Shown one piece after another: positions 4,152-48,360 of a stretch of DNA of 64,000 bases (its first letter is position 1; each line of letters opens with the position of its first letter). This DNA is from Candidatus Uhrbacteria bacterium. Lineage in GTDB: Bacteria; Patescibacteriota; Patescibacteriia; UBA9934. The notes beneath the pieces were generated by a model. It was not told where the DNA came from. It made no database searches and was given only the letters and a program-made list of their open reading frames with translations. The stretch lies in the NCBI GenBank assembly GCA_018664485.1, contig JABJOE010000006.1:7294-71293 (forward strand), read 5' to 3'. Position numbers and translations under genes: made by a program.

Positions 4152-4883
4152 CTATGGTTGATCAGGAATCTCGAACAGTTTTCCGTCACCATTTGGATTA
4201 AATCCACCTGCTACTTCTTGACCATCTAAATATCCATCTCCATCTGTATCAGCTTCAAGAGGATCTGTTCCGTAAACCTGAACCTCTTCACGATCTCCAA
4301 GTCCGTCTTTGTCTGTATCTAACTCGGAAGGGTCGGTACCCGCTACGATTTCTTCTGCGTCCGTTAGACCGTCACCATCGGAATCTACTTCCTCGGTTTC
4401 TTCCTCCGGATCTTCATCTTCAATAACCTCATCGTCCACAACTTCGTCATCTACCACCTCATCGGCAACCACTTCGTCATCTACTACCTCTACTGTTTCT
4501 TCATCGATAATCTCATCATCGATTGTAGATGGGCCAAAAATCAATGCATACGCAAGCCACCCTGCAACACTAATAATTACAAGAGCAACAATAACGATTA
4601 ATAGAATCTTACCAAACCCTGACTTACGTTTTGGCATCATTGGTGGTGCTACCGGGGACCCACCTGCGGACGGTGGGACTGGTACTGGCGCGCCCGTTGG
4701 TGCCTGTGCCACGGGAGCTGGTGCCGGAGTTGGCACGGGAGTAGGTACTGGCGCCGGTGCCGGGGTTGGCGCAGGTGCTGCGGCCGCTACTGGCAAATTC
4801 ACCGGAGCATCAAACATATCTTCAACGGGTGGTTGAGGTGCCGCTCCTGGTTTTGGTGTCTGGTCATCGAACATAATTAACAA
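4152..4883 (-). CDS. Membrane-anchored protein with a Pro/Ala-rich N-terminus, an acidic (DEVV)n spacer and a C-terminal thrombospondin-type-3-like repeat module.
   Basis: 243 aa. TM helix ILLIVIVALVIISVAGWLAYALIF. C-terminus DSDGDGLTDAEE...DTDKDGLGDREE...DTDGDGYLDGQEVAGGFNPNGDG. Confidence 0.6.
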   Translation of the reverse strand: MLIMFDDQTPKPGAAPQPPVEDMFDAPVNLPVAAAAPAPTPAPAPVPTPVPTPAPAPVAQAPTGAPVPVPPSAGGSPVAPPMMPKRKSGFGKILLIVIVALVIISVAGWLAYALIFGPSTIDDEIIDEETVEVVDDEVVADEVVDDEVVDDEVIEDEDPEEETEEVDSDGDGLTDAEEIVAGTDPSELDTDKDGLGDREEVQVYGTDPLEADTDGDGYLDGQEVAGGFNPNGDGKLFEIPDQP

Positions 4884-9000: not shown

Positions 9001-12000
9001 TAGTTTAATCCTGACACTGAGCTTGATCCACAGTCACAAAGCTCTCCACCTGCAAGCGACCCATCTCCACAACTAAATGTAGAAGCATAAGTACAGTCAT
9101 TGTCACAGAATCCATATCTTCCGTTATATGAACCGTCGTCACATGTTTCACCAGTATCAATCACTCCGTTTCCACACTCAAACGCTTCGCATGTTGCGCC
9201 GTCTAGATCTTCACCGCCCAAACAGTCACTTGCACATGTCTGCGAGATTGAACCGTCAATATCATTTGTAGCGTCTCCGTCTCCGTCTGAGTCAACCGAA
9301 GCATCAGAGTCACAAGTAGCAGCGTCCATCTCCTGTCCGATTTCACAAATCTCAGTACCACCTATGACGCCATCTCCACAGATCGTCTCATCACCCCACC
9401 TTGTATTTGCACAGAAATACGATGGCGATGCGAAACCGTCACCACTTCCAGTCTTTGCATAAACCTGGAAGTTGTAGCTGTCAGATGTGTCCTGATCAAG
9501 ATCTTCTGTCCACGGAGTTCCGTGGAATTCCAACTCAGCACCCATGTAATATCCACCCTTACCATAAGCGCGGTAGTGGTAAACATTAGTCTCACGGTTA
9601 GGACAGAGATATTCTCCGTTAGTCTGATTCACACATGTATCTGCATCGTAATCAGTGTAATGACCATCTTCTCCACAGTTCACATATGCGTTTAGCGGAT
9701 CTGAAGGAGGCTCTTCTCCAAGTTCAGATCGGAGCTGTTCATTCCAAGAGCTCCACGCGGAAGAACTTAATGAAGCCACAAACGTTCCAGACTCAAGCTG
9801 AGGCGTTGCAGGAACACATTCTTCTGAATCTGGGCATTGACTATCACTTGTACATGTTTGAGAAGTTGTGTCGGAACAATATCCGTTTACATCTCCGTAG
9901 TCTTCGATCATTGCCGCGAGATCAGTAAGGTCAGTCAAACGAGTCATGTCACGCATGACCTTTGCAGCCTGATCGTCACATCTCTCACTATTCGCCCAAT
10001 CACAATCCTGGTCAGATACACATGTGTCATCCGTATATGAACCACCTGAGTCCATGCACAATGCCGTATCATCAAAGTTAGTATTAAATTCAAGGTTTGA
10101 AATCAACTGATTGTAGACTTCAACAGTCTCAGATGAAGCCCCCGAGTTGTAAGAGATAACAAACATATCCGAATACAACACAGAAGATGTCCTGTTCGGG
10201 AACGACACATAAGTAGTACGCCCATCTTGAACCGCCTTATATCCGCCAGCTACTGCAATTTCTGAAGGTGAACCAGCAAAACCTTGCTCCGTGTACCACG
10301 CCATTGGGCTTAGGTACTCTGAGTTTGAAGCAATACGAATTCCGATAGCGTCTCCCGTTGACTCGCCGTCAGCAAGTAGACGGAAGAAGTACTCTTTAAT
10401 GACATCATCAGTTTCAGTGTCTTCTGTCAGAACAACATCAACCTCTGGGAGATCATCATCTTCTGTTTCAGCTCCACTGTCCATACAATAGTATGTGGAG
10501 AAGTTCATCCAACCGATACCAGCTCTTGCACCATTTCCAGTACCAGTACTGTCATCAATGAATGGGAAGTCAGTAATTGCTGGCCATGGATTTTCACAAA
10601 CCATAGCTGTAGCAGATGTCGTTCCACTATGAGACTCGCCTTCAGTCTCTGACTGTACATCAACAGTAATAGTTGCAGTAGCGGTGATATTCACCTCTCC
10701 GTTTTCACCGGCCGCCGCATAGTTGGAGTCAGCCGTTCCGTCAGTGCTTGAACTCTCACTTTGCTGCGCTAGAATCTCCTCACCGGCGTCATCAGAACTC
10801 CAAGTAGACCACGTCCAATCATAGACGCTGCTAATAGGTTCAATTTGCTGTTTGATTCCAGTCTGATAAGAGAAACCGGCAGCCGTGTAGTCATGATCTT
10901 CTGAAACCTGCGTATAAACCCCAGGACTATCTTCGTCTGAGTCGGTTACCTCAACTACATCCATCAAACAAAGTTCATCATATGTTGTGAAATCAACATG
11001 ATCACTTTCCATTTCCACTCCATAGAATGACAACGCGCCCTCCTTATCTACATCAGTGTCAGACAAATCATCACCAACTACATATATTGTGTAGTCAGAA
11101 AGAGCTTCAAGGACAGTATCGTAATGGAATAAAACCTTGTAATCTCCGCTCTCCTCTAGGCTTTGAGATACGCTCGTAATTTCAACTGCACAATCTCCGC
11201 TTGACTGAGCTTGTACAACTCCAGTTCCAAATAGAGCACCAACACGGAAGAATGCACGCGCGAGCCAGCTATTTCCAACAGTTGCAGTTTCGGCATGTGC
11301 AATAGATGTATGTGTTTCCGGACAAGAACCGGAACCTATATCTAGAACAAGATACATGTTCTGTATATCCTCACCATCATCCAAATCGGTATAGAAGAAA
11401 CTTCCTAAGTCCATCTTTTCACTGAACAATCCGTAAATTGCAGCGTTACGGCAAGCGTCTGATCCGTTTGGATAAAGGCTTACCTCTGGACGCGCCATAC
11501 AACATGAGTTGTCCGCAGGTCCGTAATCACTTTCACAATCACTATCAACTTCCGCTACACATGAAAGATAAAGCGCAGTGCTGTCTGAAACGTCCTCATA
11601 CGTAACTTCAATCAAAGTTTCTGCCAATCGGCTATCTGTATCAACCTGCTCGGCAGCAGATGTCATGATCTCAACAAGCTGAAGAGGATCGATTATACCG
11701 TCACCTCCAGTTGCGTCATAAGTAGGATCTTCACATGATTCGAACTCTCCGGTACCAGCCTCACCGTCTCCACAGACTGACGGACTTGCATATGAGGTTG
11801 ATGCACCCTCCCAAAGACATTCATCACTACACCCTTCTGTTCCGTCACAATCCTCTCCCTCACCATATGCCCCTTGGTCAACGGCGTTATCTCCACAATC
11901 TCCATAATCTCCATCTGCACCTTCACGCAAACATATTGATGAACAACCGTCTTCGTCTTCAACTCCCCAGTCATCGCAGGTTTCGTAAGGTGTATCAATT

Positions 12001-15000
12001 ACTCCATCTCCACACTCGGCAGCGACTGACGTAAGTGCTGTAGAGCCTTCATTTAAACAAATTGCAGAACAACCATCACCAGATGAAGTACCTCCGTCAT
12101 CGCAATCCTCACCACCAACACTGTCGGAATGACCAACGCTTCCGTTTCCACAAGTAGCGCCCGCAGCTGCAGACCCTTCGTTGATACAAGATGAAGAACA
12201 TCCATCTCCGTCGGTAATATTACTGTCATCACACTCTTCTCCCGCATATGAGGAGTCCACGTCTACAACGCCATCTCCACAACAACCAGATCCAACGGCA
12301 TCACATGTGTCAGCGTAGGTACAGTCTGCATCAATAGCACAAACATCTCCACTCACAGAACACACACCTTCCTCTGAATCATCCGCGATTTCACATGTCT
12401 CGGCACAATCTTCATCGTCTGAACATGAGTCACCGCTTGAAGCACAGGTAAATGAACAGCTATTAGTTCCTTCCGCTAAACACTCTGAAGAGCATCCGTC
12501 TCCGTTTGTAACGTTTCCGTCATCACAGTCTTCTCCAGTTTCAATATCACCATCTCCACAAATTGCAGTGTAGACCTCGGAACCACCAGCAAGACACGAC
12601 TCGGTACAACCAGGCGCTATACCGTCTAAATCAACATCAAATAGTGAGGAGTTTATTTCAGTCCACTCTGCAACATCAACGTCATCAATAGGAACTGACC
12701 ATTCATAGTCATAGCTATAAGCAGATAACTGCTGACCAGTGGATGAACATTCATCCTGCTGACCATATGGCTGTACAAAATATTCAACAGTTTCACCAAT
12801 TGCCTCGGCTGTATAATTCTCAGGTGAAACTTCGAGCCGATCAACAGTACACAGAGACTCATCATCTTTTGTTGAAAATACCCAAGAGAAATCATCACCG
12901 TAGTTAGTGTCAGTTAGAGCAACCCCACTACTAGACTCAACGTCTCCGGAAATAATCACACGGAAATATGTATCAGCTGTCAGCTGGGCGTCCCATCCAG
13001 ATTCAGTAATTGTAAGTACAAATTCCTCACACTCAGACGATGTACAGCCAGCAGTGACGTCTACCTGAGTCAGTCCGACACACAACTCATTAGAACACTC
13101 GTACATGGTCACCATACCTGTGTCCTGAATTGAGCTGTCCATGTCGATATTGAAAGATGCACCGATCCCACTGTTAACACAAGCAGTATTACAGTTCGGA
13201 TAGTAGCTTGTTACATACGGATCTCTGTAGTCAATCTCAAGATCAGCGTCATCACCAATTCCGCTATCGTCTTCAATGGCATTTACAACACTCTCCCCTT
13301 CCGCAAGAGCTTCCGCTACAGCACAGGAGTCGTTCAAACTTGTATCATCACAGATTCCTTCCGTAAGTGACGCGTATGAAGATGTGTCTAAACTCCATGT
13401 CCATGCATATGTAGCACCACTTAACACCTGACAATCAGCAACAGGAAGCGCTTCATATTCAGTTGTTTCACCCTGCTCCTCAAGCAATTCAGAACTAGGG
13501 CTCACGATAACTCGCTCAATTTCACAATCGGCTGAGCTGTCATCTGTTAGGAACTCCCAGGTAACATCGCTATCCATCTGCACACCTTCTTCTGATTCAA
13601 CATCGCTTGAAACGGTTACTAAGTACCGTGTCTCGGTTGAAAAGCCACTGTGATCAATAGTGAAAGACGTAGCTGTTGAGCTTGATGTAATAGTTGGGGC
13701 GTCCATTGTGAATGTAGAGACGTCTTCACATGAAGAATCCGCACACTCTTCCACCGTAATATATTCAGATGTGAGGAAGTCTTCGTCCATAAGCTCCGTA
13801 AACGTTGCGCGAATCACAGCGTCAACACATACCTCATCTGTAAATCTCTCGTTTGGAACAGCTGAAATATCATCATCAGAACACTCAACTACGATTCCTG
13901 GCGTCTCAGGGATTGATCCTGTTCCAAAATACCAACTATAACCACCGTCCACAGTAGCCTCTTCGTCTTCCTCATCATCAGCACCAATCTCAAAATTTGA
14001 AGAGTTACTATCCTCCCCTTCATTATTCGTTATAAAAACTGGACCTGTTACCGCATCTGACGGAACAGATGTAACTATTTCGTCGTTTGACCAATCGTCA
14101 TCCTCAACGCTCGCGCTTGAACCGTCGTAGAATTCAATTGACCCTGTGCTTGATCCGAAATTGTCTCCATAGATAGTTACTGTGTCTCCAGACTCGCCGT
14201 CGTCTGGATCAATAGCACAAATACCAGGGGTTGGATCATCTTCTGTTACTTCAAAATCTACAGCATCGGACTCACCGCCGCTCCGCTTTTCAATATACAA
14301 CTCATAATCCCCAGCCTCCACGTCGTCTTCATTTGAAAATTCTTCCGGAACGATAATGACGATCTCAGAAGCACTCCAAAAACTTTCAGAACATGCGTCC
14401 GGGAACTCAATACTTCCCTGTGCTGCACCTAACGTTGGATGTTCAAACCAAACACTTCCAACGGAAGTTCCAAATCCAGAACCTGAAATGGTTACGTATT
14501 GTCCGATACCTCCCTCTTCCGGATCGATTGCGGAAATGATTGGTGAGTCATCATCCGTATCTTCCACTCCAAAACTGACAGTATTAGATTCAACTCCGTC
14601 AACCGTAATTGAAACGTCATAATAATCATTCACAGTAACAGACGGAACCGTTGCAGCTACATCAGTTGCGGACCATGACGTGTAAGAACCAGCCTCAGTC
14701 TCATCCTCATCTTCAGCTGTAAAAGTAATAACTGAATCACTCTGCGAATCTCCGAAATTCGTTCCCTCGATCGCAAATGCATCATTCACTTCAGCCTCGT
14801 TCGGCGAAATATCACACAAATTAGGACGAACGGTAGTATTCACGTCAAAGTCATCAATGATAGCACCGTTATCGTCGTCAGTTGTTTCCTCGTAGTCATT
14901 GCGAGTTACGATTGTAATTGGACCGTCTCCAGCACCTTCTGGCACCTCAACAATCACTTCATCATCACTCCAACCGTCTCCACATGAAGGAATCGTAGCC

Positions 15001-16385
15001 TCAACAGTTGAGCCGGCTCCATCGTCAAAATATACAGTACCTTCAACACTACCGAATCCGTCACCAGAGATAGTAACGAATGTTCCTTCAATTCCGTTAT
15101 CAGGTGACACGCTTTCAATTTCTGGATAGGACACACAAGTTCCTTCCAAACATGTACCCGACTCACAATCGCTATCTTCTTCACAACTTGAACCGTCACA
15201 AGACCCGCAATCCTCACCTCCACAATCCTCACCCTCTTCGTCTTCATCCTCTGTATCGTTGAAACAGTGAGCTGCAGTTGCCAAAATGCTGATTGAGTCA
15301 GTATCTGTGTTTCCTGCAATATCCGTCGCAGTCACTTCAAGCGTATATCTTGTTCCAGCCTCTAAATCTTCTGTAGAGTATGTCGTTTCAATAGTTACGT
15401 CCGACAAATCATCACCTTCAGCCGGAACACTATCAAACAGTACCTCTTCATCATCGTAGAAGTCAGCGGTTGCAACCTCGCTGTCATCTGTCGCTGTAAC
15501 CTGAACAAGAGTAGATGAATCTATTGAAATACGTTCACCGCTGTCTGGATATGTGAGTTCAACTTCAGGATCTTCAGTGTCTACTAATTCACCACTTGTG
15601 AAGCTTGAAGTACAACTATCATCCGAACATACGAGTGAGCTTCCTGAAGTACTTTCAATGTCATCACCAACCTCAACCGTGAATGCAGTATTTTCGTCGA
15701 AACAGTATCGATCATCGTTTGGCTCAGGGCATGCTGCGTCTGGTACAAACGTAATCTTGTTAGACGTAACGCTCAATGTTCCATCTACCTCTTCGCCAGT
15801 TTCATCATTTGTAATTGTAACGTTACCTGCGACCGTATCTTCATCAACTGATCGAGAGAAAGTAATTTGAACTTGAATATTTCTAATAACAACCTCGCCT
15901 TCTGGCGAGAAGTCGGTAACTGCAAAAGAAGTAACGCTCGATCCAGAACATCCTCCCAAACAGCTATCGCTACCGCTATCACTGCCAGAACCTGATCCCG
16001 ATCCACCACTTCCAGCTTCCAAAATAGACCCCAATATAAAGGATGTGATCGCAAATGAAAGCATTATAATGGTAAGTCCGACAATACCATTGAGCAATAT
16101 CTTTTTAGCGCTTTCAACCTTACTCGCATCACCACCGGCTGTCATCCAAACAAATCCACCCCATATAATAATGAGCACCGCAATGATTCCGAGCGTTCCT
16201 AAGAAAATTCGGATTATATTTGCAATGGTAACTTCCAGAGATTGGGTTGCAAGCCCTGACGCATCGCCTAACTCATCTAATGAGTCCTGTTGTGCATGCG
16301 TTACCTGCGGTATAGCCAAAAGCCCTCCCGTCATTATAAACAAGATGGCAAAGGCCGCGAATAAATTACGAAGTTTTGAGATCAT
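6033..16385 (-). CDS. Giant (3450 aa) cell-surface adhesin-like protein. Architecture: signal peptide plus two-helix membrane hairpin anchor, Gly-Ser linker, bacterial Ig-like domain, about 4 IPT/TIG-like domains, arrays of Myxococcus-type Cys-rich repeats, and a vWA domain with MIDAS.
   Basis: Single uninterrupted ORF. N-terminus MISKLRNLFAAFAILFIMTGGLLAIPQVTHA, then IIRIFLGTLGIIAVLIIIWGGFVWMTAGGDASKVESAKKILLNGIVGLTIIMLSFAITSFIL, then GSGGSGSGSGSDSGSDS. Repeated P..G..GT.VTI.G.GFG motifs (IPT/TIG). More than 15 copies of CGDG(V/S)(I/V)D.GE.CDDGN....DGC...C (Myxococcus cysteine-rich repeat). DMSGSM (DxSxS MIDAS) ...VVLMTDG (vWA) near nt 7180-7790. Confidence 0.85.
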   Translation of the reverse strand: MISKLRNLFAAFAILFIMTGGLLAIPQVTHAQQDSLDELGDASGLATQSLEVTIANIIRIFLGTLGIIAVLIIIWGGFVWMTAGGDASKVESAKKILLNGIVGLTIIMLSFAITSFILGSILEAGSGGSGSGSGSDSGSDSCLGGCSGSSVTSFAVTDFSPEGEVVIRNIQVQITFSRSVDEDTVAGNVTITNDETGEEVDGTLSVTSNKITFVPDAACPEPNDDRYCFDENTAFTVEVGDDIESTSGSSLVCSDDSCTSSFTSGELVDTEDPEVELTYPDSGERISIDSSTLVQVTATDDSEVATADFYDDEEVLFDSVPAEGDDLSDVTIETTYSTEDLEAGTRYTLEVTATDIAGNTDTDSISILATAAHCFNDTEDEDEEGEDCGGEDCGSCDGSSCEEDSDCESGTCLEGTCVSYPEIESVSPDNGIEGTFVTISGDGFGSVEGTVYFDDGAGSTVEATIPSCGDGWSDDEVIVEVPEGAGDGPITIVTRNDYEETTDDDNGAIIDDFDVNTTVRPNLCDISPNEAEVNDAFAIEGTNFGDSQSDSVITFTAEDEDETEAGSYTSWSATDVAATVPSVTVNDYYDVSITVDGVESNTVSFGVEDTDDDSPIISAIDPEEGGIGQYVTISGSGFGTSVGSVWFEHPTLGAAQGSIEFPDACSESFWSASEIVIIVPEEFSNEDDVEAGDYELYIEKRSGGESDAVDFEVTEDDPTPGICAIDPDDGESGDTVTIYGDNFGSSTGSIEFYDGSSASVEDDDWSNDEIVTSVPSDAVTGPVFITNNEGEDSNSSNFEIGADDEEDEEATVDGGYSWYFGTGSIPETPGIVVECSDDDISAVPNERFTDEVCVDAVIRATFTELMDEDFLTSEYITVEECADSSCEDVSTFTMDAPTITSSSTATSFTIDHSGFSTETRYLVTVSSDVESEEGVQMDSDVTWEFLTDDSSADCEIERVIVSPSSELLEEQGETTEYEALPVADCQVLSGATYAWTWSLDTSSYASLTEGICDDTSLNDSCAVAEALAEGESVVNAIEDDSGIGDDADLEIDYRDPYVTSYYPNCNTACVNSGIGASFNIDMDSSIQDTGMVTMYECSNELCVGLTQVDVTAGCTSSECEEFVLTITESGWDAQLTADTYFRVIISGDVESSSGVALTDTNYGDDFSWVFSTKDDESLCTVDRLEVSPENYTAEAIGETVEYFVQPYGQQDECSSTGQQLSAYSYDYEWSVPIDDVDVAEWTEINSSLFDVDLDGIAPGCTESCLAGGSEVYTAICGDGDIETGEDCDDGNVTNGDGCSSECLAEGTNSCSFTCASSGDSCSDDEDCAETCEIADDSEEGVCSVSGDVCAIDADCTYADTCDAVGSGCCGDGVVDVDSSYAGEECDDSNITDGDGCSSSCINEGSAAAGATCGNGSVGHSDSVGGEDCDDGGTSSGDGCSAICLNEGSTALTSVAAECGDGVIDTPYETCDDWGVEDEDGCSSICLREGADGDYGDCGDNAVDQGAYGEGEDCDGTEGCSDECLWEGASTSYASPSVCGDGEAGTGEFESCEDPTYDATGGDGIIDPLQLVEIMTSAAEQVDTDSRLAETLIEVTYEDVSDSTALYLSCVAEVDSDCESDYGPADNSCCMARPEVSLYPNGSDACRNAAIYGLFSEKMDLGSFFYTDLDDGEDIQNMYLVLDIGSGSCPETHTSIAHAETATVGNSWLARAFFRVGALFGTGVVQAQSSGDCAVEITSVSQSLEESGDYKVLFHYDTVLEALSDYTIYVVGDDLSDTDVDKEGALSFYGVEMESDHVDFTTYDELCLMDVVEVTDSDEDSPGVYTQVSEDHDYTAAGFSYQTGIKQQIEPISSVYDWTWSTWSSDDAGEEILAQQSESSSTDGTADSNYAAAGENGEVNITATATITVDVQSETEGESHSGTTSATAMVCENPWPAITDFPFIDDSTGTGNGARAGIGWMNFSTYYCMDSGAETEDDDLPEVDVVLTEDTETDDVIKEYFFRLLADGESTGDAIGIRIASNSEYLSPMAWYTEQGFAGSPSEIAVAGGYKAVQDGRTTYVSFPNRTSSVLYSDMFVISYNSGASSETVEVYNQLISNLEFNTNFDDTALCMDSGGSYTDDTCVSDQDCDWANSERCDDQAAKVMRDMTRLTDLTDLAAMIEDYGDVNGYCSDTTSQTCTSDSQCPDSEECVPATPQLESGTFVASLSSSAWSSWNEQLRSELGEEPPSDPLNAYVNCGEDGHYTDYDADTCVNQTNGEYLCPNRETNVYHYRAYGKGGYYMGAELEFHGTPWTEDLDQDTSDSYNFQVYAKTGSGDGFASPSYFCANTRWGDETICGDGVIGGTEICEIGQEMDAATCDSDASVDSDGDGDATNDIDGSISQTCASDCLGGEDLDGATCEAFECGNGVIDTGETCDDGSYNGRYGFCDNDCTYASTFSCGDGSLAGGELCDCGSSSVSGLNYGGSACTDLNSTYNSNPNSSCAWDCSGAASFCGDGEVDDGEGEVCDGNSDSWDGELCVGGTDEGAACEDDADCDSAVCGDSSSSWSEACEITTVCLAGTESLIGYPCTSNSYCGTDDGVCSTSTFPTTRTITCADDGEGGETCGWNSPWSTTAFWQGVSCVASSDCGDGVVDDGEECDDGNDDSTDDCTTECQLNVCGDGYLYDGEEQCDEGSDNGVVCDSQYDSTCSYCNDSCVQVTYSGAFCGDTIIEDEEVCDGTDLPYWYAQLDGSLYPEGNVYGMCDREDEGAVIVGPDSLAYYGCSNVGVCNGGDNNGLMCLNDSGCEDDDGDGECILPSCADGCESTCPFTYENDQLLMKTNELGARRSNEIEMISYDADVSGTLLTYGNSATVYFPACTVATRLTADVDYEFDIPDTKIIFSTDMSGSMAYVWDGTCADDGTSCHYDSTCEEDESVECEGETRMDTTIDSLQTSVDGIFEGLGSGVEIGFIGFTNYMEDSDCDPDTETCGAVEEVEYTYASNVDDGFFYDADNSVYAQSEVASYIARSGTYTYYGLKAAQTAFTTYSSTDDRQIVVLMTDGLWSCESCGASQIDPALMACQLKDDGVEIYTVALYSGSDSEVSPVEDAFCDDYRTEDGWMDEEEWMDSLCGNGVVDDVADEQCDDGNDVDEDDCTNECTSPVCGDGVINGEEECDSGGTETADCNYDEEADEDDHPATDCQESECGDEYTNTADGETCDGDTGSDISSCSSSCVISWECCSGYYGVSTYDCYAEGGVADITTCGGCDATCNPGSGSGTSSCNNDGSCDVGETYADCPFDCPAETLYSPWISPVRISWNIKEWKVMSIAESVADFALELVEIPVARAATSETCAADYVDLDLIDQMACWSSGNPNDDNDVDYAHNGSSADELEEIYEEIVNSIVSIRFTYVIDGEAVSGNVTEGDDVEIPWPAGFACDGENSQEIPIRISFDDNDSGGTVSLDDMRFRYCEP

Positions 16386-16423: not shown

Positions 16424-18319
16424 CTAACTACTGAAGTAGGAACAGTCAGTTGATTGAGCCTCACCGTTACAACAGAAAGGTTCTGTGTCACTCGTTCCAC
16501 AAGAACCACCCGAATCATCCGGCCCTTCTCCTGGAACGTAACAGTTTTGATATTGATTCCTCACTCCTTCCGTTACATCCACTGAGTAAAGATAGCTAGT
16601 TCCGTCGGTGTAACACTGCAGATCAGTATTACATGCCTCGCCCGACTCACAATCACCGTCTACAGCACAACTCTCACCCGTAAGTGCATCGTCGGTGGAA
16701 GCGAGGAATACTCCGTGCCGGATACCTGCCTGAGTTGCAACTGCAGTCTGCTCGGACGATACAACTTCATCGCCGTACTCATCGATTGAGTCAGTGCTAA
16801 CTACGTACCACATTTCGTGTGACGGGTTTGGTGTCGCGACAATATATTCACTCGACATTGTGTTACTCATCATGATGGAGTCAAACAAAACCGTAATCTC
16901 CTGATCCAACTCGACATTCTCCTCTAAAATATCTGGACCAATTGATTCAATCTCCGGCGCTTCCAAATTTACGTCGTCAGATGTTGAAAATGACCAGTCA
17001 TAGTCGTCTCCAGCTTCACCATCACCGTCACCGTCCAATGCATTTGCTGATACATCAACGATTCCGTCATATGGTGTCTCGGCCTGCGGCGCCGCATCTT
17101 CGTCAACGGTAGCGGCAATAACATCGACCGTAATATCTTCAAGTCCAGGCAAACAATAAATGAGTTCACCACACGAGTTTTCTCCACATTCATCGTCGGT
17201 AGTGTACGTAACAGTTTTGTAACCATTTGAAATAGCGTACTCACCAGTTAGCGGAACTGAGTCACCAATATGCGTTTGGATATTGCTAAATCCACTACCA
17301 CTCTCACGAGTTCCGGTTGACACTGTCGGATCCACAGCTTCTGAGAATGTAATTTGCACAACAATGTTTCTGTCATACTCGTCACCTGCTTCAGGCGACA
17401 CGCTCACAACATATGGCGGCGTTAGGTCAATTTCAGTTCCAACTTCGAATGACCACTCATACCCGCCAGTGTTTACCACCTGGTCGCCATCCTTATCTCC
17501 AACATCCTCCGAAATGAATACCGTGTACGAAGTATCTTCTGTTGAAGATCCAAGATAATCCTCTGGTGAGAAGCTAAACGTCTTTAGATCTTCCGTAAAC
17601 GTCACGCTCACTTCTTCAGATGTCAGGATACCTTCTTCTCCGTCCTCAGATCGATAAATCAAAATGTTGTCTGTATTTAATGTTGTCGCAACCGTATCGT
17701 CACTCGTATCATCCGGTGTACCGTTGGTGTCGTAGCCATCGATAAGCCCCTCAATGTCCATCGCACTCTTAAACGTAACTAGAATATTGATATTTCTCGC
17801 AGCACCAGTCGCATTGCGCGCTGGGAAGTGGTCGCGGATTCCACCCTGCCCAAGAGATCCAGAACTTCGCTCGATTGATGCCGAGCTATCACTTCCGCTT
17901 CCAGAACCGCTTCCGCCACCTCCACCGATCAATGCACCCGTAAGCGCGCTAATGATAAAAGCTGTGATCGCATAAGATGCCATAACTATCACAAGTCCGA
18001 CAACTCCGTTGATCATCCACTTCTTTGCTTTTTCAACTTTGTCAGCATCACCACCGGCTGTCATCCAAAGGAAACCAGCGTAGATGATAATGATCAGAAG
18101 AACGATTCCAAGTGCACTCAAGAATACACTTACTAACGTCCCTATAACTTCTGGCAGGCTTGCGGTACTAAGACCTGACGCACCTCCGGCTACAGCGAGC
18201 TCCGACGATTGCGCAAGAACAGCGCTCGGAATAAACGCAAAAATACCGGTGACCAGAGTGATCCCGAATAGGAGAACAAGCGCTTTTGATAAACGCATCG
18301 TTATTTGATTCACATGCAT
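16424..18319 (-). CDS. Paralog (631 aa) of the giant surface protein, with the same N-terminal anchor module and Ig-like domain but a short Cys-containing ectodomain.
   Basis: N-terminus MRLSKALVLLFGITLVTGIFAFIPSAVLA, then ...YAGFLWMTAGGDADKVEKAKKWMINGVVGLVIVMASYAITAFII, then GGGGGSGSGSGSDSS. A 25-nt identical stretch (18045-18069 vs 16126-16150) encodes the WMTAGGDA loop. The TPPYVVSVSPEAGDEYDRNIVVQITFSEAVD bacterial Ig-like motif matches the giant's ISPEGEVVIRNIQVQITFSRSVD. Confidence 0.8.
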   Translation of the reverse strand: MHVNQITMRLSKALVLLFGITLVTGIFAFIPSAVLAQSSELAVAGGASGLSTASLPEVIGTLVSVFLSALGIVLLIIIIYAGFLWMTAGGDADKVEKAKKWMINGVVGLVIVMASYAITAFIISALTGALIGGGGGSGSGSGSDSSASIERSSGSLGQGGIRDHFPARNATGAARNINILVTFKSAMDIEGLIDGYDTNGTPDDTSDDTVATTLNTDNILIYRSEDGEEGILTSEEVSVTFTEDLKTFSFSPEDYLGSSTEDTSYTVFISEDVGDKDGDQVVNTGGYEWSFEVGTEIDLTPPYVVSVSPEAGDEYDRNIVVQITFSEAVDPTVSTGTRESGSGFSNIQTHIGDSVPLTGEYAISNGYKTVTYTTDDECGENSCGELIYCLPGLEDITVDVIAATVDEDAAPQAETPYDGIVDVSANALDGDGDGEAGDDYDWSFSTSDDVNLEAPEIESIGPDILEENVELDQEITVLFDSIMMSNTMSSEYIVATPNPSHEMWYVVSTDSIDEYGDEVVSSEQTAVATQAGIRHGVFLASTDDALTGESCAVDGDCESGEACNTDLQCYTDGTSYLYSVDVTEGVRNQYQNCYVPGEGPDDSGGSCGTSDTEPFCCNGEAQSTDCSYFSS

Positions 18320-18948: not shown

Positions 18949-19299
18949 TTGGAGTCCAAATTGACCACAGCAGCAATCGCAATGATCTCTATGTATAGCG
19001 GCGTGATGATCTCAGCTTTCGGGATTGTGTTGTCGCTTTGTTCCTCCACCTCCGCAATCCGCGATTTTGTAGGTCGGCTGCTGATTACCATCGGCTGCGT
19101 GATCATGACGACCGGCTATCTAGCTGTAGGCGTCGTAGATTTTGTTCACACCCCTCCACAAGACCTGCAACCTCTTCCAATCTTCTTCACATCATTCCTT
19201 GGAGTGGCCCTCATCTTTCTCTGCTTCTCTACAGCGTCCGATGCCATGTCCATGATTCGCGGCAAATGGGTAAAACGGCGCGAACTACCGACACCCTAG
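18949..19299 (+). CDS. Hypothetical membrane protein.
   Basis: 116 aa with 3 hydrophobic helices. Preceded by the promoter above. An alternative overlapping frame 19038..19376 is less protein-like (Arg/Ser-rich). Confidence 0.4.
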   Translation: MESKLTTAAIAMISMYSGVMISAFGIVLSLCSSTSAIRDFVGRLLITIGCVIMTTGYLAVGVVDFVHTPPQDLQPLPIFFTSFLGVALIFLCFSTASDAMSMIRGKWVKRRELPTP

Positions 19300-42493: not shown

Positions 42494-43702
42494 TCATTTC
42501 TTAGCCACCCTTGCGACCGCGCTTGAAACGCTCTTTACAACCATAGGATCAAACGCATCTGGAATAATATTTGTAGGATGAGGCTCCTTAACCACCCCCG
42601 CCAATGCCTGCGCTGCCGCCAGTTTCATATCTTCCGTGATTTCTTTGGCCTTTGCGTCAAATGCACCTCGAAATACTCCAGGGAAAGCGAGCACATTATT
42701 TATTTGGTTTGGAAAGTCTGATCGACCAGATGCTACAACTGCAGCTCCAGCATCAAGCGCATCTTGCGGCATAATCTCTGGATCAGGATTAGCCATAGCA
42801 AACACGATTGCATCTTTTGCCATAGATTTCACCATCTCCGATGAAACGATTCCACCAACACTCACTCCAATGAATACATCAGCACCTTCGAGCGCATCAG
42901 CTAAAGTTCCACCTTTCTCATTAGGGTTGGTAAAACTGAGCAGATCTTTCTTTGCACCGTTTAGATTGTCACGATCTGGTGAAATAATTCCTTTTGAATC
43001 ACACATAACAATGTCTGCAACACCTTGAGATGAAAGTAACTTCGCAATTGCAGTGCCTGCGGCTCCAGCCCCACTCATAACAACCTTCAATCCATCAAAC
43101 GTTCTATTTGTAACCTTGAGTGCGTTGATAAGGCCTGCAACCGTAACGATTGCAGTACCATGTTGGTCGTCGTGAAAAACTGGTATATCCAGTCGTTCCC
43201 GAAGACGCCGCTCAATCTCAAAACACCGAGGAGCAGCAATATCTTCTAAATTAATCCCACCAAAGCTCGGTGCTAATCGAACAACCGTTTCAACAATCTC
43301 ATCTACGTCTTGCGTTGCAAGGCAGATCGGAAAAGCATCCACGTTAGCAAAAGTCTTAAATAGCACAGCCTTCCCTTCCATTACCGGGTACGCAGCTTCG
43401 GGTCCAATATTTCCAAGCCCCAAAACAGAAGAACCATCAGTTACAACAGCAACCCAGTTACCTCGTGGCGTATATTTCCAAACATTCTGCACGTCCTTTG
43501 CGATCTCACGGCAAGGCTCTGCAACGCCCGGCGTATAGTAAGTTGAAAGATCATCACGATTCTCCAAAGGTACTTTTAATCCAAGTTCAATCTTCCCCTT
43601 ATTCTCCGCATGACGCTTAAGCGACTCTTTATTGTAATCCATACCGGCACAGGGTAACACGGTTGATTGCGGATGTTCAAGATGACCTGTATACATTGAC
43701 AA
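42494..43702 (-). CDS. NAD(P)-dependent malic enzyme (short, about 400-aa form).
   Basis: 402 aa. ...DLSTYYTPGVAEPCREI..., Rossmann GAGAAGTAIAKLL, ...FANVDAFPICL... Confidence 0.85.
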   Translation of the reverse strand: MSMYTGHLEHPQSTVLPCAGMDYNKESLKRHAENKGKIELGLKVPLENRDDLSTYYTPGVAEPCREIAKDVQNVWKYTPRGNWVAVVTDGSSVLGLGNIGPEAAYPVMEGKAVLFKTFANVDAFPICLATQDVDEIVETVVRLAPSFGGINLEDIAAPRCFEIERRLRERLDIPVFHDDQHGTAIVTVAGLINALKVTNRTFDGLKVVMSGAGAAGTAIAKLLSSQGVADIVMCDSKGIISPDRDNLNGAKKDLLSFTNPNEKGGTLADALEGADVFIGVSVGGIVSSEMVKSMAKDAIVFAMANPDPEIMPQDALDAGAAVVASGRSDFPNQINNVLAFPGVFRGAFDAKAKEITEDMKLAAAQALAGVVKEPHPTNIIPDAFDPMVVKSVSSAVARVAKK

Positions 43703-43906
43703 AAGGCCATTTTTGTGATATTCTTGTGCGTCAGATAAAGACGTTTTCTCATCATTTTGTGGTGATTTAACGCCTTTATCTGCATATTTAGCCGATCGCG
43801 AAAATCATCTGCCTATAGTGGTGGGTGTGGGGTAAATTAGCCTATTCGTGTTAGGGAATATGTCTCGCCGTTCCTGGTGAGTTTAAGATGAGGAGAGAAG
43901 AAGACC

Positions 43907-44905
43907 ATGTCAGACGGAAAAGAGTCCGAAAACGAAGAGTCCACGAACGAAGGGTCCAGCAAGTTTCGCCTGTCCTCCCTCGCCTTCATGTTCGTCATGT
44001 CGAACCTCGGCATTATGATCGCTGCGGCAAAGGGTGACTGGTTTAATATCTTTGGCGTAGTCGGTAGCCTTACCTTGGGATACGTTATCGTGTCTCAGTG
44101 GCATGCGCTGCGGGACCTACGCAAAGAGTTCAAGATCAAGGAGGTCGATCTCCAGAAAATAGTTGTCGATCTCGCCATGGAAAAAACTACGGTCAGAGTC
44201 CTCACACAACAAAGAGACGATGCAATCGAGCATGAGAGAGCTCTCCAAACGAAGGTCCATGACCTCGAGGCCGCGAATGCGGTGCTCAAAGAAGAGAAGA
44301 GTGAGGCAGAAGGCGAAAGCGCACGGCTCAAGGGTCGGAACGACCGCCTGACAGAGAGCGAGAAGCGCGACCGCAAAGCGCTTCTCACGTTCCTGAGCTT
44401 CGTCCTCAAGCAGATGCAGATCATCCGGTCTGCAAAAGCCAAGGACATGGATGGAACCTGGGCCTCCGAATTGCGACAGCGTCTAGCGCATGAAGTGATG
44501 CGATTGGCGACGACGCAGGAGCTGGAGCCAGACTTCTTCGCGACCAAAGACAGAGCGGAACTGGTCTTCGATGTCATGACAGAGATGGCAGAAGCCCTTC
44601 ACAGTCGCAATAGGCTGCGCTTTGGTTCAATCTTCAGGCGTCAGCATGAAAGCGAACTGTGGGACCTCGGAATTCCCCGCATCTTGTTGGTGTCTCACAT
44701 GACCCGTATCGACAAGGGGAACGATCAGGATGTGGCCACACAGCACCTTCTTGATGGCAATGGAGCGATCCGCCCCATGTACTTCAGAGCAGCACATGAC
44801 CTGGCCCGAGAAATTCGGGAATCCAAGACGATGGAGATCCTTTCGGTAACGGAATCCGCCGGCTTCCTCTGGCTTACCGGACTCTTCGAGAAAAAATCAA
44901 ACTGA
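43907..44905 (+). CDS. Hypothetical TM plus coiled-coil protein. By eye it is markedly GC-rich compared with the genome.
   Basis: 332 aa. One TM helix (LAFMFVMSNLGIMIAAA...VVGSLTLGYVIV), then a heptad-rich coiled-coil (VHDLEAANAVLKEEKSEAEGESARLKGRNDRLTESEKRD). Confidence 0.5.
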   Translation: MSDGKESENEESTNEGSSKFRLSSLAFMFVMSNLGIMIAAAKGDWFNIFGVVGSLTLGYVIVSQWHALRDLRKEFKIKEVDLQKIVVDLAMEKTTVRVLTQQRDDAIEHERALQTKVHDLEAANAVLKEEKSEAEGESARLKGRNDRLTESEKRDRKALLTFLSFVLKQMQIIRSAKAKDMDGTWASELRQRLAHEVMRLATTQELEPDFFATKDRAELVFDVMTEMAEALHSRNRLRFGSIFRRQHESELWDLGIPRILLVSHMTRIDKGNDQDVATQHLLDGNGAIRPMYFRAAHDLAREIRESKTMEILSVTESAGFLWLTGLFEKKSN

Positions 44906-45015
44906 GCATTACGCCTGTAGCCATGCGACCGAGTGGTCCTTGAGCACAGCCGTCAATTCCCACACCTCGTCTAACGGGGGGTGGGAATTTACATTTAAAA
45001 AAACATCTGCATTGG

Positions 45016-45045
45016 TTGACGTTTTGAGCGATTTATGATAGTATC
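45016..45045 (+). promoter_or_regulatory. Near-consensus sigma70 promoter upstream of 45114.
   Basis: TTGACG, 17-nt spacer, TAGTAT. Downstream AAAGAGGAG Shine-Dalgarno sits 7 nt before the ATG at 45114. Confidence 0.45.
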
Positions 45046-45113
45046 TACAGTCGTATCTTCGGCAAACAATACACGCGCAGCAAATCGAATTACCCTACAA
45101 AGAGGAGCCTGCA

Positions 45114-45833
45114 ATGACACAAGATCCATCTGATGCCGTTACCCTTGAAGAGGCCGCAGCGCTACTTGCTGCCGTGATGAAAAGGCTCGTCGGTAAAGAT
45201 GGCCGCGCCTGGCTCACAACCATTGAGCGCCTTTCACTAGCTGATGATCCACAACATACGGAAGCTGTCAGCGCAGGTACTCCAGCACTCTCCGTTCCCA
45301 ATGGACTGACAGTCGACGATGCCTGGGCGCGATCAGTAATCCATCGATCAGGATTCGACGCCGCGATTGCAGAGTGGGAGAAAGCATACACCCAAGCAGA
45401 GAGCCTGGGGCTCCCGCTACGCATCCCTCGCAACGCGCGAATCCTACACTCCTACCTCGCCTCCGATCACAGCACACGGTTGCCGAAAGACAAGCCTGGG
45501 AGGAAGTTTGCCGTATGGCTCGTAGATCAGATCTATGAAGCTACGATGACAGGACTCACTCGCGACACATACAGCAGGCGGCGAGAGGCGTCCGTGATCA
45601 TGTTCCGCGCAGCCGTGCTCGTACTGAAGGTAGTGTCAGAAGAAGTAGAGGTAGTCACAGATATGCCTAGGTCCACATCATCAGCCGACACAAATTGGAC
45701 CATTCAAGGTGGCATCGCTCAGAAAATTGGAAGCGAAATGCGTCCGGACGAAAGCTGGCTCCAAATCGGCATTTTGCTTCGACCGCAGCTCAAGTTCAGC
45801 GACGGCACGTCCATACCCGGCGACGTCGCATGA
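45114..45833 (+). CDS. Hypothetical protein, GC-rich by eye.
   Basis: 239 aa. Good RBS. No recognisable motif. Confidence 0.45.
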   Translation: MTQDPSDAVTLEEAAALLAAVMKRLVGKDGRAWLTTIERLSLADDPQHTEAVSAGTPALSVPNGLTVDDAWARSVIHRSGFDAAIAEWEKAYTQAESLGLPLRIPRNARILHSYLASDHSTRLPKDKPGRKFAVWLVDQIYEATMTGLTRDTYSRRREASVIMFRAAVLVLKVVSEEVEVVTDMPRSTSSADTNWTIQGGIAQKIGSEMRPDESWLQIGILLRPQLKFSDGTSIPGDVA

Positions 45834-45948
45834 AACCACCGCCAACTCCTCGGCAAACAGACTGCCCCGTATCGACCCCTGGTCTTTGCGGGGATTCGTG
45901 CATCAATAAACAATAAAAATAGAAATCTCCAAATAAACCTTGAAGCAA

Positions 45949-46230
45949 CTACTTCCAGCGCTCCAACCTTGGGATACCTCGCGTTAAAATCCAGGCAAGA
46001 ATACCATTCATACCTTTCTCTTTCATTTTTTCAATACAGAGTATTTGCATTTGTTTTGGGTCTGTAATTTCAGGGCTTAAAAATGGTCCGTCTTTAAAAC
46101 AGTACGAGCAGTACATATCACTCTTCGCCCCATCTTTTTCAGATCCCCCTCCCTTAGGATCACCACTAAATGGCATCCCGCAACTCTGACAAAATTTATT
46201 CTTTTTCATATACGCAAAGTATATCAGCAC
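45949..46230 (-). CDS. Zinc-ribbon domain protein.
   Basis: 93 aa. CQSCGMP...CSYCF Cys pairs (C-x2-C ... C-x2-C). Confidence 0.6.
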   Translation of the reverse strand: MLIYFAYMKKNKFCQSCGMPFSGDPKGGGSEKDGAKSDMYCSYCFKDGPFLSPEITDPKQMQILCIEKMKEKGMNGILAWILTRGIPRLERWK

Positions 46231-46263
46231 GGTTCAAAATCATGAATTCTGCGTTTCTAAATT

Positions 46264-46551
46264 CTATAAGTGTTTGTATCCAAGTCTCTTTAATTCATGT
46301 TGATGCTGTCGCTTAAATTCTCTGTGTCCACCTCCACTCTTCAAATAGACTTCACGAGCCATTGCATCATTCTTATTCTTATAATTTTCATAATAGAATA
46401 TTTTCGCAGGCAATCTGTGCTTTGTAGATTTTACAGAGCCTGATTCGTGAGCCCTTAACCGATCTTTAAGATTTGTAGAGTAACCGATATACAGCTGATC
46501 ATCTGAACAAAATAAAACGTAAACAAAATACATACATATACATCCTAGCAT
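46264..46551 (-). CDS. GIY-YIG nuclease-superfamily small protein.
   Basis: ...YFVYVLFCSDDQLYIGYSTNLKDRLRAHESG... GIY-YIG core with a conserved Arg and Glu. The true start is probably the internal MYFVYVL. Confidence 0.7.
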   Translation of the reverse strand: MLGCICMYFVYVLFCSDDQLYIGYSTNLKDRLRAHESGSVKSTKHRLPAKIFYYENYKNKNDAMAREVYLKSGGGHREFKRQHQHELKRLGYKHL

Positions 46552-46606
46552 TAGCGACGTCGGACGTCGCTTTTGGACCCGTCAAACGGGTCTCAGGCCT
46601 TCACAG

Positions 46607-46645
46607 CAAAAGACCCACGACGTAATGTCAGTGGGTCTTTTTGGT
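46607..46645 (-). terminator. Terminator downstream of tRNA-fMet.
   Basis: gacccac...gtgggtc stem followed by TTTTG on the minus strand. Additional palindromes cgacgtcggacgtcg and gacccgtcaaacgggtc lie at 46555-46597. Confidence 0.45.
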
Positions 46646-46676
46646 TGCCCGAACGGCTTTAGGCCGTCCGACGGCC

Positions 46677-46753
<77 letters not shown>

Positions 46754-46758
46754 GGCGC

Positions 46759-46787
46759 ATAATAGGTAAAATATGGGTTTATGTCAA
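46759..46787 (-). promoter_or_regulatory. Consensus sigma70 promoter for tRNA-fMet.
   Basis: On the minus strand: TTGACA, 17 nt, TATTAT. The -10 ends about 6 nt before the tRNA 5' end. Confidence 0.55.
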
Positions 46788-46810
46788 GCAAACGTCCTTT
46801 GAGCGCACCG

Positions 46811-46839
46811 TTGACTAACCTGCAGTAATCTGGTAATAT
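46811..46839 (+). promoter_or_regulatory. Sigma70 promoter for tRNA-Leu.
   Basis: TTGACT, 17 nt, TAATAT. About 20 nt upstream of the tRNA 5' end. Confidence 0.55.
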
Positions 46840-46859
46840 TCGCATCGCAAAACAAGTTT

Positions 46860-46946
46860 GCCGCGATGGCGGAACTGGTAGACGCGCGGGACTCAAAATC
46901 CCGTGATGGCAACATTGTGAGGGTTCAAGTCCCTCTCGCGGCACCA
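46860..46946 (+). tRNA. tRNA-Leu (anticodon CAA), type II with a long variable arm.
   Basis: GCCGCGATGGCGGAACTGGTAGACGCGCGGGACTCAAAATCCCGTGATGGCAACATTGTGAGGGTTCAAGTCCCTCTCGCGGCACCA. Anticodon loop CTCAAAA. Encoded CCA. Confidence 0.85.
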
Positions 46947-47131
46947 CTGAATTCATATACTTACTACTTCTCAATAAAGAGGAAGACAGTATATCTAGAT
47001 CGGTTGCGATTACAACGCAGTCAGTTTGGTATAGTTTCGATGAAAGGGTGGCACGCAAGGAAACGTACTCAATGTACGTAGACGAAGCGTGTCGGGCCCC
47101 TTGAGTCGAAAATAGCCCAAAATGACAAGTT

Positions 47132-47208
47132 GGCTGGGTAGCTCAGTTGGTTAGAGCGCGGGACTCATAAGCCTGAGGTCGAGAGTTCAAGTCTCTCTCC
47201 AGCCACCA
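47132..47208 (+). tRNA. tRNA-Met (anticodon CAU), elongator type. tRNA-Ile2 (lysidine) cannot be excluded from sequence alone.
   Basis: GGCTGGGTAGCTCAGTTGGTTAGAGCGCGGGACTCATAAGCCTGAGGTCGAGAGTTCAAGTCTCTCTCCAGCCACCA. D-loop and T-arm resemble elongator tRNA-Met. Confidence 0.8.
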
Positions 47209-47240
47209 AAAACACACCTGAAACAGGTGTGTTTTTGTAT
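47209..47240 (+). terminator. Rho-independent terminator after the tRNA-Met.
   Basis: acacacctg-aaa-caggtgtgt 9-bp stem followed by TTTTTG. Confidence 0.6.
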
Positions 47241-47281
47241 TGACAAAACCCATTAAATAGTATAAGTTCACTCCTCGGCAT

Positions 47282-47809
47282 TTGATTCCTGTCGAGACAC
47301 CCCACTCCGGAGACTGTATGCCCGATCTCATCCTCGCCCATGCAACTAGCTTGGCACAGGCAATTCAGAAGGTGAGCGCTCCGAACGTCACCCATAAAGG
47401 CTCCGGCTGTGAAAACTACAACCCCAATAGCCACTACATAGAACACTCTCCAATCCGTCCGCGAGGTGGCCAGTGGCTGATCGTGACTGCAAGAAGCAGT
47501 TTCAAAAATAACGATAAGAGGTTTGAAGCGTATGTGACGGCCTGCATCGTCGCCCCCTCCCTCTGCCATGAAGAAACGAGAGGTGACCCCACCGCCTTCT
47601 TCCGGATCTACTACCACGACAACCGGAAACTCGTCTGGCATGTCACCTGGCGCCTTGAGCCAACGAAAGGTCAATGGCGTCTGGATGAAGCGCACACTAC
47701 GCTTGATACCATTCCTGAGTCCTGCAAAGAGGATATCAAGACCGGCGTCTACGACAACATCGAGGACCTCGCGAAAATGCTCGGCACATTCGCAACAGCA
47801 ATGAGCTGA
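47282..47809 (+). CDS. Hypothetical protein, GC-rich by eye.
   Basis: 175 aa. The start may be the internal MPDLILAH (47318). No motif. A degenerate terminator hairpin and T-run follow the stop at about 47833-47870. Confidence 0.45.
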   Translation: MIPVETPHSGDCMPDLILAHATSLAQAIQKVSAPNVTHKGSGCENYNPNSHYIEHSPIRPRGGQWLIVTARSSFKNNDKRFEAYVTACIVAPSLCHEETRGDPTAFFRIYYHDNRKLVWHVTWRLEPTKGQWRLDEAHTTLDTIPESCKEDIKTGVYDNIEDLAKMLGTFATAMS

Positions 47810-47862
47810 CTCGAAAGCTCGACTCCGTCAGAGCGCCTCCACTAGGGGGCGTTCCTTGCTTT

Positions 47863-48360
47863 TTGCAAAACTATGCTATACTCCCGCACACTATGACTTT
47901 GACCACACATACTGCAATTGGCGCTGCTATTGGCTCATCTGTCGGAAACCCCATCATCGGGTTTCTTCTTGGATTTGCATCTCACTTCCTGGTAGACATG
48001 ATTCCACATGGTGACAGTAAAATGTCTGACTCATTCCGACTACTCCACAAAAAAGGACCCGTGGCGTATGCATCAATCGATGGAGCTATCGCTCTATACC
48101 TTGTCCTCACCCTTTCAAACATTATTCCGTCAGCACAACTATTTGCATTCTCCCTGGCTGTCGCAGGATCTGTACTCCCTGACCTTCTAATCGGATTACA
48201 AGACCTGACTCACTGGAGAATACTAAAACCTTTCTTTAGATTTCACTTTTTCTTCCACGACTTTTTTACAAAAAAATACGGCGATGTAAAACTTACATAC
48301 GCCCTTGCAGGACAAGCTGCTGTTATTATTTTTATCCTTCTCCCGCTTGTTAACGGCTAG
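47863..48360 (+). CDS. Hypothetical integral membrane protein, possibly DUF457 / YdjM-like membrane-bound metal-dependent hydrolase.
   Basis: 165 aa with about 4 TM helices. LVDMIPHGD His-containing motif near the first helix. Confidence 0.45.
   Translation: MQNYAILPHTMTLTTHTAIGAAIGSSVGNPIIGFLLGFASHFLVDMIPHGDSKMSDSFRLLHKKGPVAYASIDGAIALYLVLTLSNIIPSAQLFAFSLAVAGSVLPDLLIGLQDLTHWRILKPFFRFHFFFHDFFTKKYGDVKLTYALAGQAAVIIFILLPLVNG

Follow-up and report, generated by a model that had tools for sequence, protein, structure and literature searches.

Candidate laterally acquired orphan genes beside a tRNA cluster in a Candidatus Uhrbacteria genome

Results

A metagenome-assembled genome of Candidatus Uhrbacteria, from the Candidate Phyla Radiation (CPR), includes the 64-kb stretch of DNA analysed here (contig JABJOE010000006.1; called hereafter the window, to whose numbering all coordinates refer). 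Near 44–48 kb, it holds three + strand open reading frames (ORFs) of unusual composition, placed on the two sides of a group of three transfer RNA (tRNA) genes. ORF1 (43907..44905) encodes 332 amino acids (aa), ORF2 (45114..45833) 239 aa and ORF3 (47318..47809) 163 aa. Two small minus-strand genes, coding for a zinc-ribbon (Zn-ribbon) protein and for a GIY-YIG nuclease-domain protein, lie between ORF2 and the tRNA genes.

The G+C content (GC) of the window is 0.455, with a standard deviation (sd) of 0.029 for 500-nt windows. Of the 16 GC-richest 500-nt windows, 15 were located inside 43.9–47.9 kb, with a peak at 0.568 (z +3.9). Two-state segmentation of the 64 kb revealed a single long GC-rich segment, 43933..45893 (GC 0.542), made of ORF1, ORF2 and 60 nt past the ORF2 stop; the only other GC-rich call was a 209-nt repeat patch (4642-4850). 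This long segment is directly abutted on its right by the GC minimum of the window, the two lowest 500-nt windows (0.364 and 0.368, at 45901-46500) lying over the Zn-ribbon/GIY-YIG pair, and extremes of both signs adjoin there. Sliding GC and segmentation both placed the shifts at sharp boundaries, close to those of the genes. A previous inspection of the letters only (the sequence-only reading) had described a compositional mosaic around the tRNA cluster, with three genes more GC-rich than their flanks and an AT-rich GIY-YIG/zinc-ribbon pair between them. The description is correct: the three genes stood out by sliding GC and by GC at third codon positions (GC3), ORF1 and ORF2 also by segmentation, and the pair was recognised by its matches to PF01541 and PF12674, under the two lowest windows.

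Codon usage was compared within one strand. Over the whole window, the ratio C3/(C3+T3) was ~0.48 in + strand genes versus ~0.31 in minus-strand genes; GC skew of the + strand was negative throughout, and 77% of the genes were on the minus strand. Because + strand genes are already C-richer at third positions, the comparison set for ORF1-3 was limited to nine other + strand genes of the window, whose GC3 averaged 0.40 (sd 0.031, range 0.35-0.46). Codon-usage outlier tests in this genome need such strand matching. Against this set, GC3 was 0.658 for ORF1 (overall GC 0.538), 0.558 for ORF2 (GC 0.557) and 0.646 for ORF3 (GC ~0.54), corresponding to z scores of 8.3, 5.1 and 7.9, respectively. Log-likelihoods of the synonymous codons gave z scores of -4.3 for ORF1, -4.7 for ORF2 and -2.9 for ORF3.

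The bias concerns C-ending codons. CTC, GTC, ATC, TTC, GCC, GGC, TCC, CCC and CGC were all preferred in ORF1-3, with for instance CTC at 0.42 versus 0.13 in the host and GTC at 0.44 versus 0.11, whereas A-/G-ending codon pairs were unaltered. An initial list of dominant codons, GCC, CGC, CTC and GAG, thus held for the first three and failed for GAG (0.48, versus 0.47 in the host). Relative synonymous codon usage (RSCU) of ORF1 and ORF3, which stand on opposite sides of the tRNA cluster, was correlated (r 0.72), and neither correlated with the host (r 0.06 for ORF1, -0.03 for ORF3). ORF2 was intermediate between these two genes and the host. GC at first and second codon positions (GC1 and GC2) of ORF1 was host-like; therefore the shift is synonymous, a mutational signature, and does not reflect amino-acid content. 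The ribosomal-protein genes of the window have a low GC3 and lack the ORF1-3 bias, which is therefore not an expression signature.

Several features indicate that the three frames are coding. At this composition, the chance of a stop-free frame is by our own calculation ~1e-6 for 332 codons and ~5e-5 for 239 codons. The long stop-free frames have the GC1>GC2<GC3 pattern of coding DNA, and each ORF has a Shine-Dalgarno (SD) motif at proper spacing, as well as a hairpin 3' of the gene. For ORF1, a sigma-70-like site is present upstream (43696-43724, + strand) and a terminator-like hairpin with a T/A run follows the gene (44966..44995, + strand). ORF2 has a consensus-like sigma-70 promoter of its own (TTGACG-17-TG-TAGTAT, 45016..45044, + strand) and a ribosome-binding site, AGAGGAG, 6 nt upstream of its ATG. 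The 208-nt gap between ORF1 and ORF2 contains this terminator-like hairpin and this promoter; therefore the two genes form no obvious operon and are separate transcription units. The start of ORF3, at first placed on a TTG at 47282, is most likely the ATG at 47318, with GGAG 5 nt upstream, and both the NCBI and JGI annotations give the resulting 163 aa. Downstream of ORF3, an intrinsic-terminator-like hairpin of 10 pairs with a T-run (47831..47864, + strand) marks the right end of the atypical composition. An equally long antisense ORF (47165-47695) is unlikely to be real and overlaps a tRNA gene. Judged from these sequence features, ORF1-3 are real protein-coding genes.

That the GC-rich stretches would encode a large structured non-coding RNA, or contain spurious ORFs only, is extremely unlikely. 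GC-rich DNA beside tRNA genes in an AT-richer genome invites the idea, since some large structured RNAs adjoin tRNA genes, and folding of the whole region gave z scores of -1.6 to -3.5 (20 shuffles). With matched controls, however, the scores were -1.6 for ORF1 and -0.3 for ORF2, when host mRNAs ranged from -1.6 to +1.6, and Rfam at E <= 1 found tRNAs only, no GOLLD, ROOL or other family. The stop-free frames, the correct starts and the SD motifs also argue for proteins. A large structured RNA near the tRNAs was rejected on the grounds of Rfam and of folding within the host-mRNA range.

No homologue of the three proteins was detected. ORF1-3 had no match in Pfam (up to E <= 10, alternative frames included), NCBIfam or PHROGs, none in PADLOC-DB v2 at E <= 0.1, none in PDB by sequence, and none among phages and plasmids (tblastn, blastn) or IMG/VR viral contigs. 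When the GIY-YIG and Zn-ribbon proteins were added, 0/5 proteins had a PHROG or viral-contig match. A word-indexed search of 5.8 billion protein clusters returned nothing but self for ORF1 and ORF2, as did an exhaustive phmmer search of 1.84 G representatives for ORF1. For ORF3 the word-indexed search gave no match either, but it missed the cluster of ORF3 itself, whose representative is a 91-aa fragment (P0004), and this is a weak negative; negatives of this search for short proteins are to be read with caution. The orphan status of ORF3 therefore rests on the other negative searches. The three genes had all been called orphans at first sight, which was borne out for ORF1 and ORF2 by their self matches only, and is less well supported for ORF3, for which the word-indexed search was unreliable. 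Nothing specific to the ORF1-3 locus was found in the literature.

Structure was predicted from single sequences with AlphaFold2 (AF2). By hydropathy and AF2, ORF1 is predicted to have an acidic N-terminal part and, at about residues 22-66, a membrane hairpin of two helices; a coiled coil of ~100 residues comes next, and the C-terminal region is helical. Its predicted local distance difference test (pLDDT) was 56 overall and 70-90 for residues 30-130, so that the model is credible for the membrane hairpin and the coiled coil only, the C-terminal half being unmodelled. Foldseek against PDB found nothing at E < 1. Going by hydropathy and the credible part of the model, a coiled-coil protein anchored in the membrane is the most likely product of ORF1. 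ORF2 was predicted to be all-helical, at a pLDDT of 42, a confidence too low to be usable.

The tRNA genes were identified by ARAGORN and Rfam. An initiator tRNA-Met (CAU) with an encoded CCA lies at 46677..46753 on the minus strand (CGCGGGG...CCCCGCAACCA). It bears the initiator marks, namely a C1:A72 mismatch and a GGG/CCC anticodon stem, in the anticodon arm TCGGG-CTCATAA-CCCGA. A tRNA-Leu (CAA) is found at 46860..46946 and another tRNA with a CAU anticodon at 47132..47208, both on the + strand. All three had been noticed from the letters, and the initiator and leucine assignments were confirmed; the second CAU tRNA, read then as Met, is either elongator Met or lysidine-type Ile2. A perfect hairpin, its arms 14 nt long, comes after this tRNA (47207-47237, + strand, repeat finder). 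The tRNAs are predicted to be driven by divergent consensus promoters, TTGACA-17-TATTAT for the initiator (46787-46759, minus strand) and TTGACT-17-TAATAT for tRNA-Leu (46811-46839, + strand).

The GIY-YIG gene (46264..46551, annotated start 46533, minus strand) encodes a stand-alone protein of 89 aa that matched PF01541 with 54.8 bits (cutoff 22.6; E 1.2e-14). The protein is a minimal catalytic domain without DNA-binding domain, and its gene has the lowest GC of all genes in the window (0.347, z -3.3). A weak and partial PADLOC match was found (PDC-S14, E 3.5e-4, 28 residues). The neighbouring gene (45949..46230, annotated start 46209, minus strand; GC 0.40) encodes an 86-aa Zn_ribbon_2 protein (PF12674, E 2e-20). 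A 125-nt spacer, from the initiator tRNA gene to the GIY-YIG gene (46552..46676, minus strand), has a GC of 0.58 and contains four near-perfect hairpins. Its minimum free energy was -67.8 kcal/mol (z -6.9 versus shuffles), it includes a bidirectional intrinsic terminator, and it matched no Rfam family. It could correspond to stacked terminators or to a small structured RNA.

Integrity of the assembly was examined with contigs from different samples and assemblers, 99.9-100% identical to the window. The left junction, from malic enzyme to ORF1, is bridged by contig L008 (40631-44509), the interior from ORF1 to ORF3 is spanned by L001 (43847-47763) and L012 (44491-47572), and ORF3 is joined to the right flank by L101-L107 and L109 (47400-49628). 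Gene order was the same in the 165,089-bp NCBI contig and in a 986,404-bp contig of JGI 3300072015, and both encode the ORF1 and ORF2 proteins (MBT4856983, HON52_02225, and MBT4856984, HON52_02230, at NCBI). The short contigs represent one near-clonal population (at least 99.8% identity), in which two single-nucleotide differences were seen. The window reads G at 46085 and all other assemblies A, so that the Zn-ribbon protein differs by Pro/Leu; contig L103 has C instead of T at 47723, which changes Cys136 of ORF3 to Arg. The arrangement was fixed and essentially invariant in every sample where the organism was assembled.

Given these bridges, made by independent assemblies across both junctions and the interior, it is hardly conceivable that the feature is an assembly chimera, a contamination or a mis-binned piece, in spite of its abrupt composition change. 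Mis-binning, raised by the sequence-only reading, and chimerism are refuted by the bridging contigs together with the two long assemblies. What speaks for an artefact besides composition is a cluster of eight contig ends from five samples at 43814-43851, the left border of the GC-rich block, and a contig, L108 (SPAdes, 2.6x, ERZ4201035), which joins unrelated DNA inside ORF3. The contig ends overlie, however, a G-rich motif present once in the window, GGTGGGTGTGGGG (43820-43832), where a coverage dropout is possible, and the interval 43814-43851 is bridged by one short contig and the two long assemblies. The cluster could reflect sequencing dropout or hidden population heterogeneity. In L108, positions 1-154 are an unrelated GC-rich sequence fused at window position 47599; this contig is either a chimera arising from low coverage or a variant junction that is rare.

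On the left of the locus are found, in order, TopA, a RelA/SpoT-family protein, ParB, ParA and NADP malic enzyme (42494-43696, minus strand), and on the right a 155-aa membrane protein, a small multidrug-export protein, D,D-carboxypeptidase, ScpB, ScpA and GlmS. The DNA that separates the malic-enzyme gene from ORF1 (43703..43906; GC 0.42) is intergenic and host-like in composition. A scan of 185,579 species genomes with malic enzyme returned 80 loci, the best matches being 54-65% identical and scattered among Methanosarcinales, Lachnospiraceae, Aenigmatarchaeota and a few CPR genomes. Synteny with the locus was seen at 0/80 of these returned matches, all of them at 65% identity or less. A metagenome scan with D,D-carboxypeptidase returned a self fragment only, and the 90%-identity protein clusters of the flanking genes had members from this organism only.

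Elsewhere in the window, a + strand ORF of 116 aa, hydrophobic (18949-19299; GC3 0.59), had the worst codon-usage fit of all and is a fourth compositional outlier; all four GC3 outliers are on the + strand. The sole Pfam hint for it was a weak match to YtpI (E 0.002). A giant ORF of 3450 aa (6033-16385, minus strand), the adjoining gene for a 631-aa protein with T4SS-pilin-like and Big_5 domains (16424-18319, minus strand) and a TSP3-repeat protein (4152-4883) probably form a cell-surface gene cluster, unrelated to ORF1-3.

Discussion

We propose that ORF1-3 are orphan genes acquired laterally, long ago, next to tRNA genes, and that they have since become fixed and immobile, an origin that we consider probable, with ample room for doubt. 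Two small patches, seemingly unique to this lineage, would have been acquired, one with ORF1 and ORF2 (~43.93-45.89 kb), the other with ORF3 (~47.3-47.86 kb). A donor or mobile element of ~55% GC may have supplied their DNA, through recombination at the tRNA genes or close to them. The recombinase and the att sites would have been lost since, and ORF1-3 would now be ordinary chromosomal accessory genes. Both patches are located downstream of the 3' ends of outward-facing tRNA genes, on the two outer sides of the cluster, as would be expected if integration had been targeted to tRNA genes. The sequence-only reading had suggested an old integration, since decayed, at a tRNA hotspot; synonymous-site composition and position fit this suggestion, whereas recombinase and att-like repeat are absent.

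The locus resembles tRNA-adjacent genomic islands and islets by its atypical composition and codon usage, by the position of its patches directly downstream of tRNA 3' ends, and by its accessory cargo without homologues. It differs from integrase-mediated islands in having neither a tyrosine or serine recombinase nor att repeats, in the tiny size of its patches (~2 kb and ~0.6 kb) and in being fixed in all samples seen, which represent one population. An integron cassette array would likewise consist of same-strand, compositionally foreign orphan genes, each followed by an imperfect palindrome. Here, in contrast, the ORFs have their own promoters, and tRNAs and opposite-strand genes interrupt the series. 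No IntI integrase was found, and between 43.7 and 48.0 kb the attC core GTTRRRY was absent and RYYYAAC occurred as two isolated copies. An integron array was ruled out by the lack of IntI and attC sites.

Several results weigh against acquisition. No integrase, transposase or mobility gene was found by Pfam among the called genes over ~10 kb on each side, as had been stated from the letters. When the 3' halves of the three tRNAs were locally aligned with every border, no direct repeat emerged and the scores stayed within the shuffled null, so that this possible trace of integration, suggested earlier as a check, is absent. The repeat finder gave no other flanking repeats, only short chance-level pairs, and no intergenic repeats were shared in the region. 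Among the compositional checks proposed at the same time, sliding GC deviates, whereas tetranucleotide usage, once normalised for base composition, does not set the GC-rich ORFs apart from the host, a comparison of low power at 1 kb; it flagged the tRNA/GIY-YIG stretch only. Promoters, SD sites and intergenic DNA look native. The flanking core genes of the lineage, too, appear to be without relatives at 90% or more protein identity. Finally, neither donor nor homologue was found, and composition is the sole argument for what would be a foreign origin.

These same results could be turned into another explanation, namely that ORF1-3 are native and fast-evolving, their composition reflecting a local mutational or selective regime, for example that of the lagging strand, and not a transfer. 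The four GC3 outliers are indeed all on the strand where C3 is already higher (~0.48 vs ~0.31), tetranucleotides, promoters and SD sites are native-looking, mobility scars are missing, and the databases searched contain no close relatives of the organism. Such an origin is nevertheless unlikely, considering that nine other genes of this strand are tightly grouped and that ORF1-3 are 5-8 sd higher, that RSCU correlation with the host is about zero for ORF1 and ORF3, and that composition changes sharply near gene boundaries. It is also quite unlikely that the whole 4-kb block, tRNAs and GIY-YIG gene included, is the remnant of a phage or mobile element. In phages and mobile elements, homing-type GIY-YIG nucleases and orphan genes are often found scattered among clustered tRNA genes; in T4, segB is a GIY-YIG gene within the phage tRNA cluster. 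As in clusters of the T4 type, tRNAs, a small GIY-YIG gene and orphan ORFs form here a mosaic, and the GIY-YIG/Zn-ribbon pair is atypical toward AT. Unlike in these clusters, no protein of the locus matched a phage family, the GIY-YIG protein is limited to 89 aa without DNA-binding domain, and the tRNAs have consensus promoters of the host type. Phage and plasmid DNA matched the tRNA genes only, at 77-96% identity among the matches listed, and the block lacks genes of the structural, replication or integration types. The simpler view is that an initiator tRNA with strong consensus promoters belongs to the host.

A third explanation, compatible with acquisition, is that ORF1 and ORF2, and perhaps ORF3, constitute a novel defence, addiction or host-interaction cassette. 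Such systems are typically met among orphan accessory genes close to tRNAs, and the predicted membrane anchor and coiled coil of ORF1 would be compatible with an envelope-associated role. A horizontally acquired defence or addiction cassette had also been suggested by the sequence-only reading and found no support: PADLOC, Pfam, NCBIfam and PHROGs gave no match, ORF1 and ORF2 are separately transcribed units, the proteins have no recognisable enzymatic domain, and the gene pair was conserved nowhere in the searches. We therefore consider such a cassette very unlikely. ORF1 and ORF2 also lack the marks of a compact toxin-antitoxin or addiction module: they encode 332 and 239 aa, lie 208 nt apart and have no Pfam or NCBIfam domain. 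The chances are similarly slim that ORF1-3 make up an accessory system not seen before, which would serve an episymbiotic CPR bacterium in attachment to the host cell or in anti-phage defence, taken from an unsampled host or virus and kept as useful. Were this the case, the codon dialect shared by ORF1 and ORF3 would mark a single acquisition, later split.

ORF1-3 make an ordinary genomic islet, one more instance of a type of feature that is already familiar. The locus is a worked example of a sharp compositional anomaly in a metagenome-assembled genome that can be real and not a binning artefact. If ORF1-3 were acquired, as we think probable, their donor codon dialect (~55% GC, C-ending) could give a hint as to the host or the virus of the organism, and even a streamlined CPR genome of ~1 Mb would take up and keep foreign orphan genes beside its tRNAs without mobility machinery.

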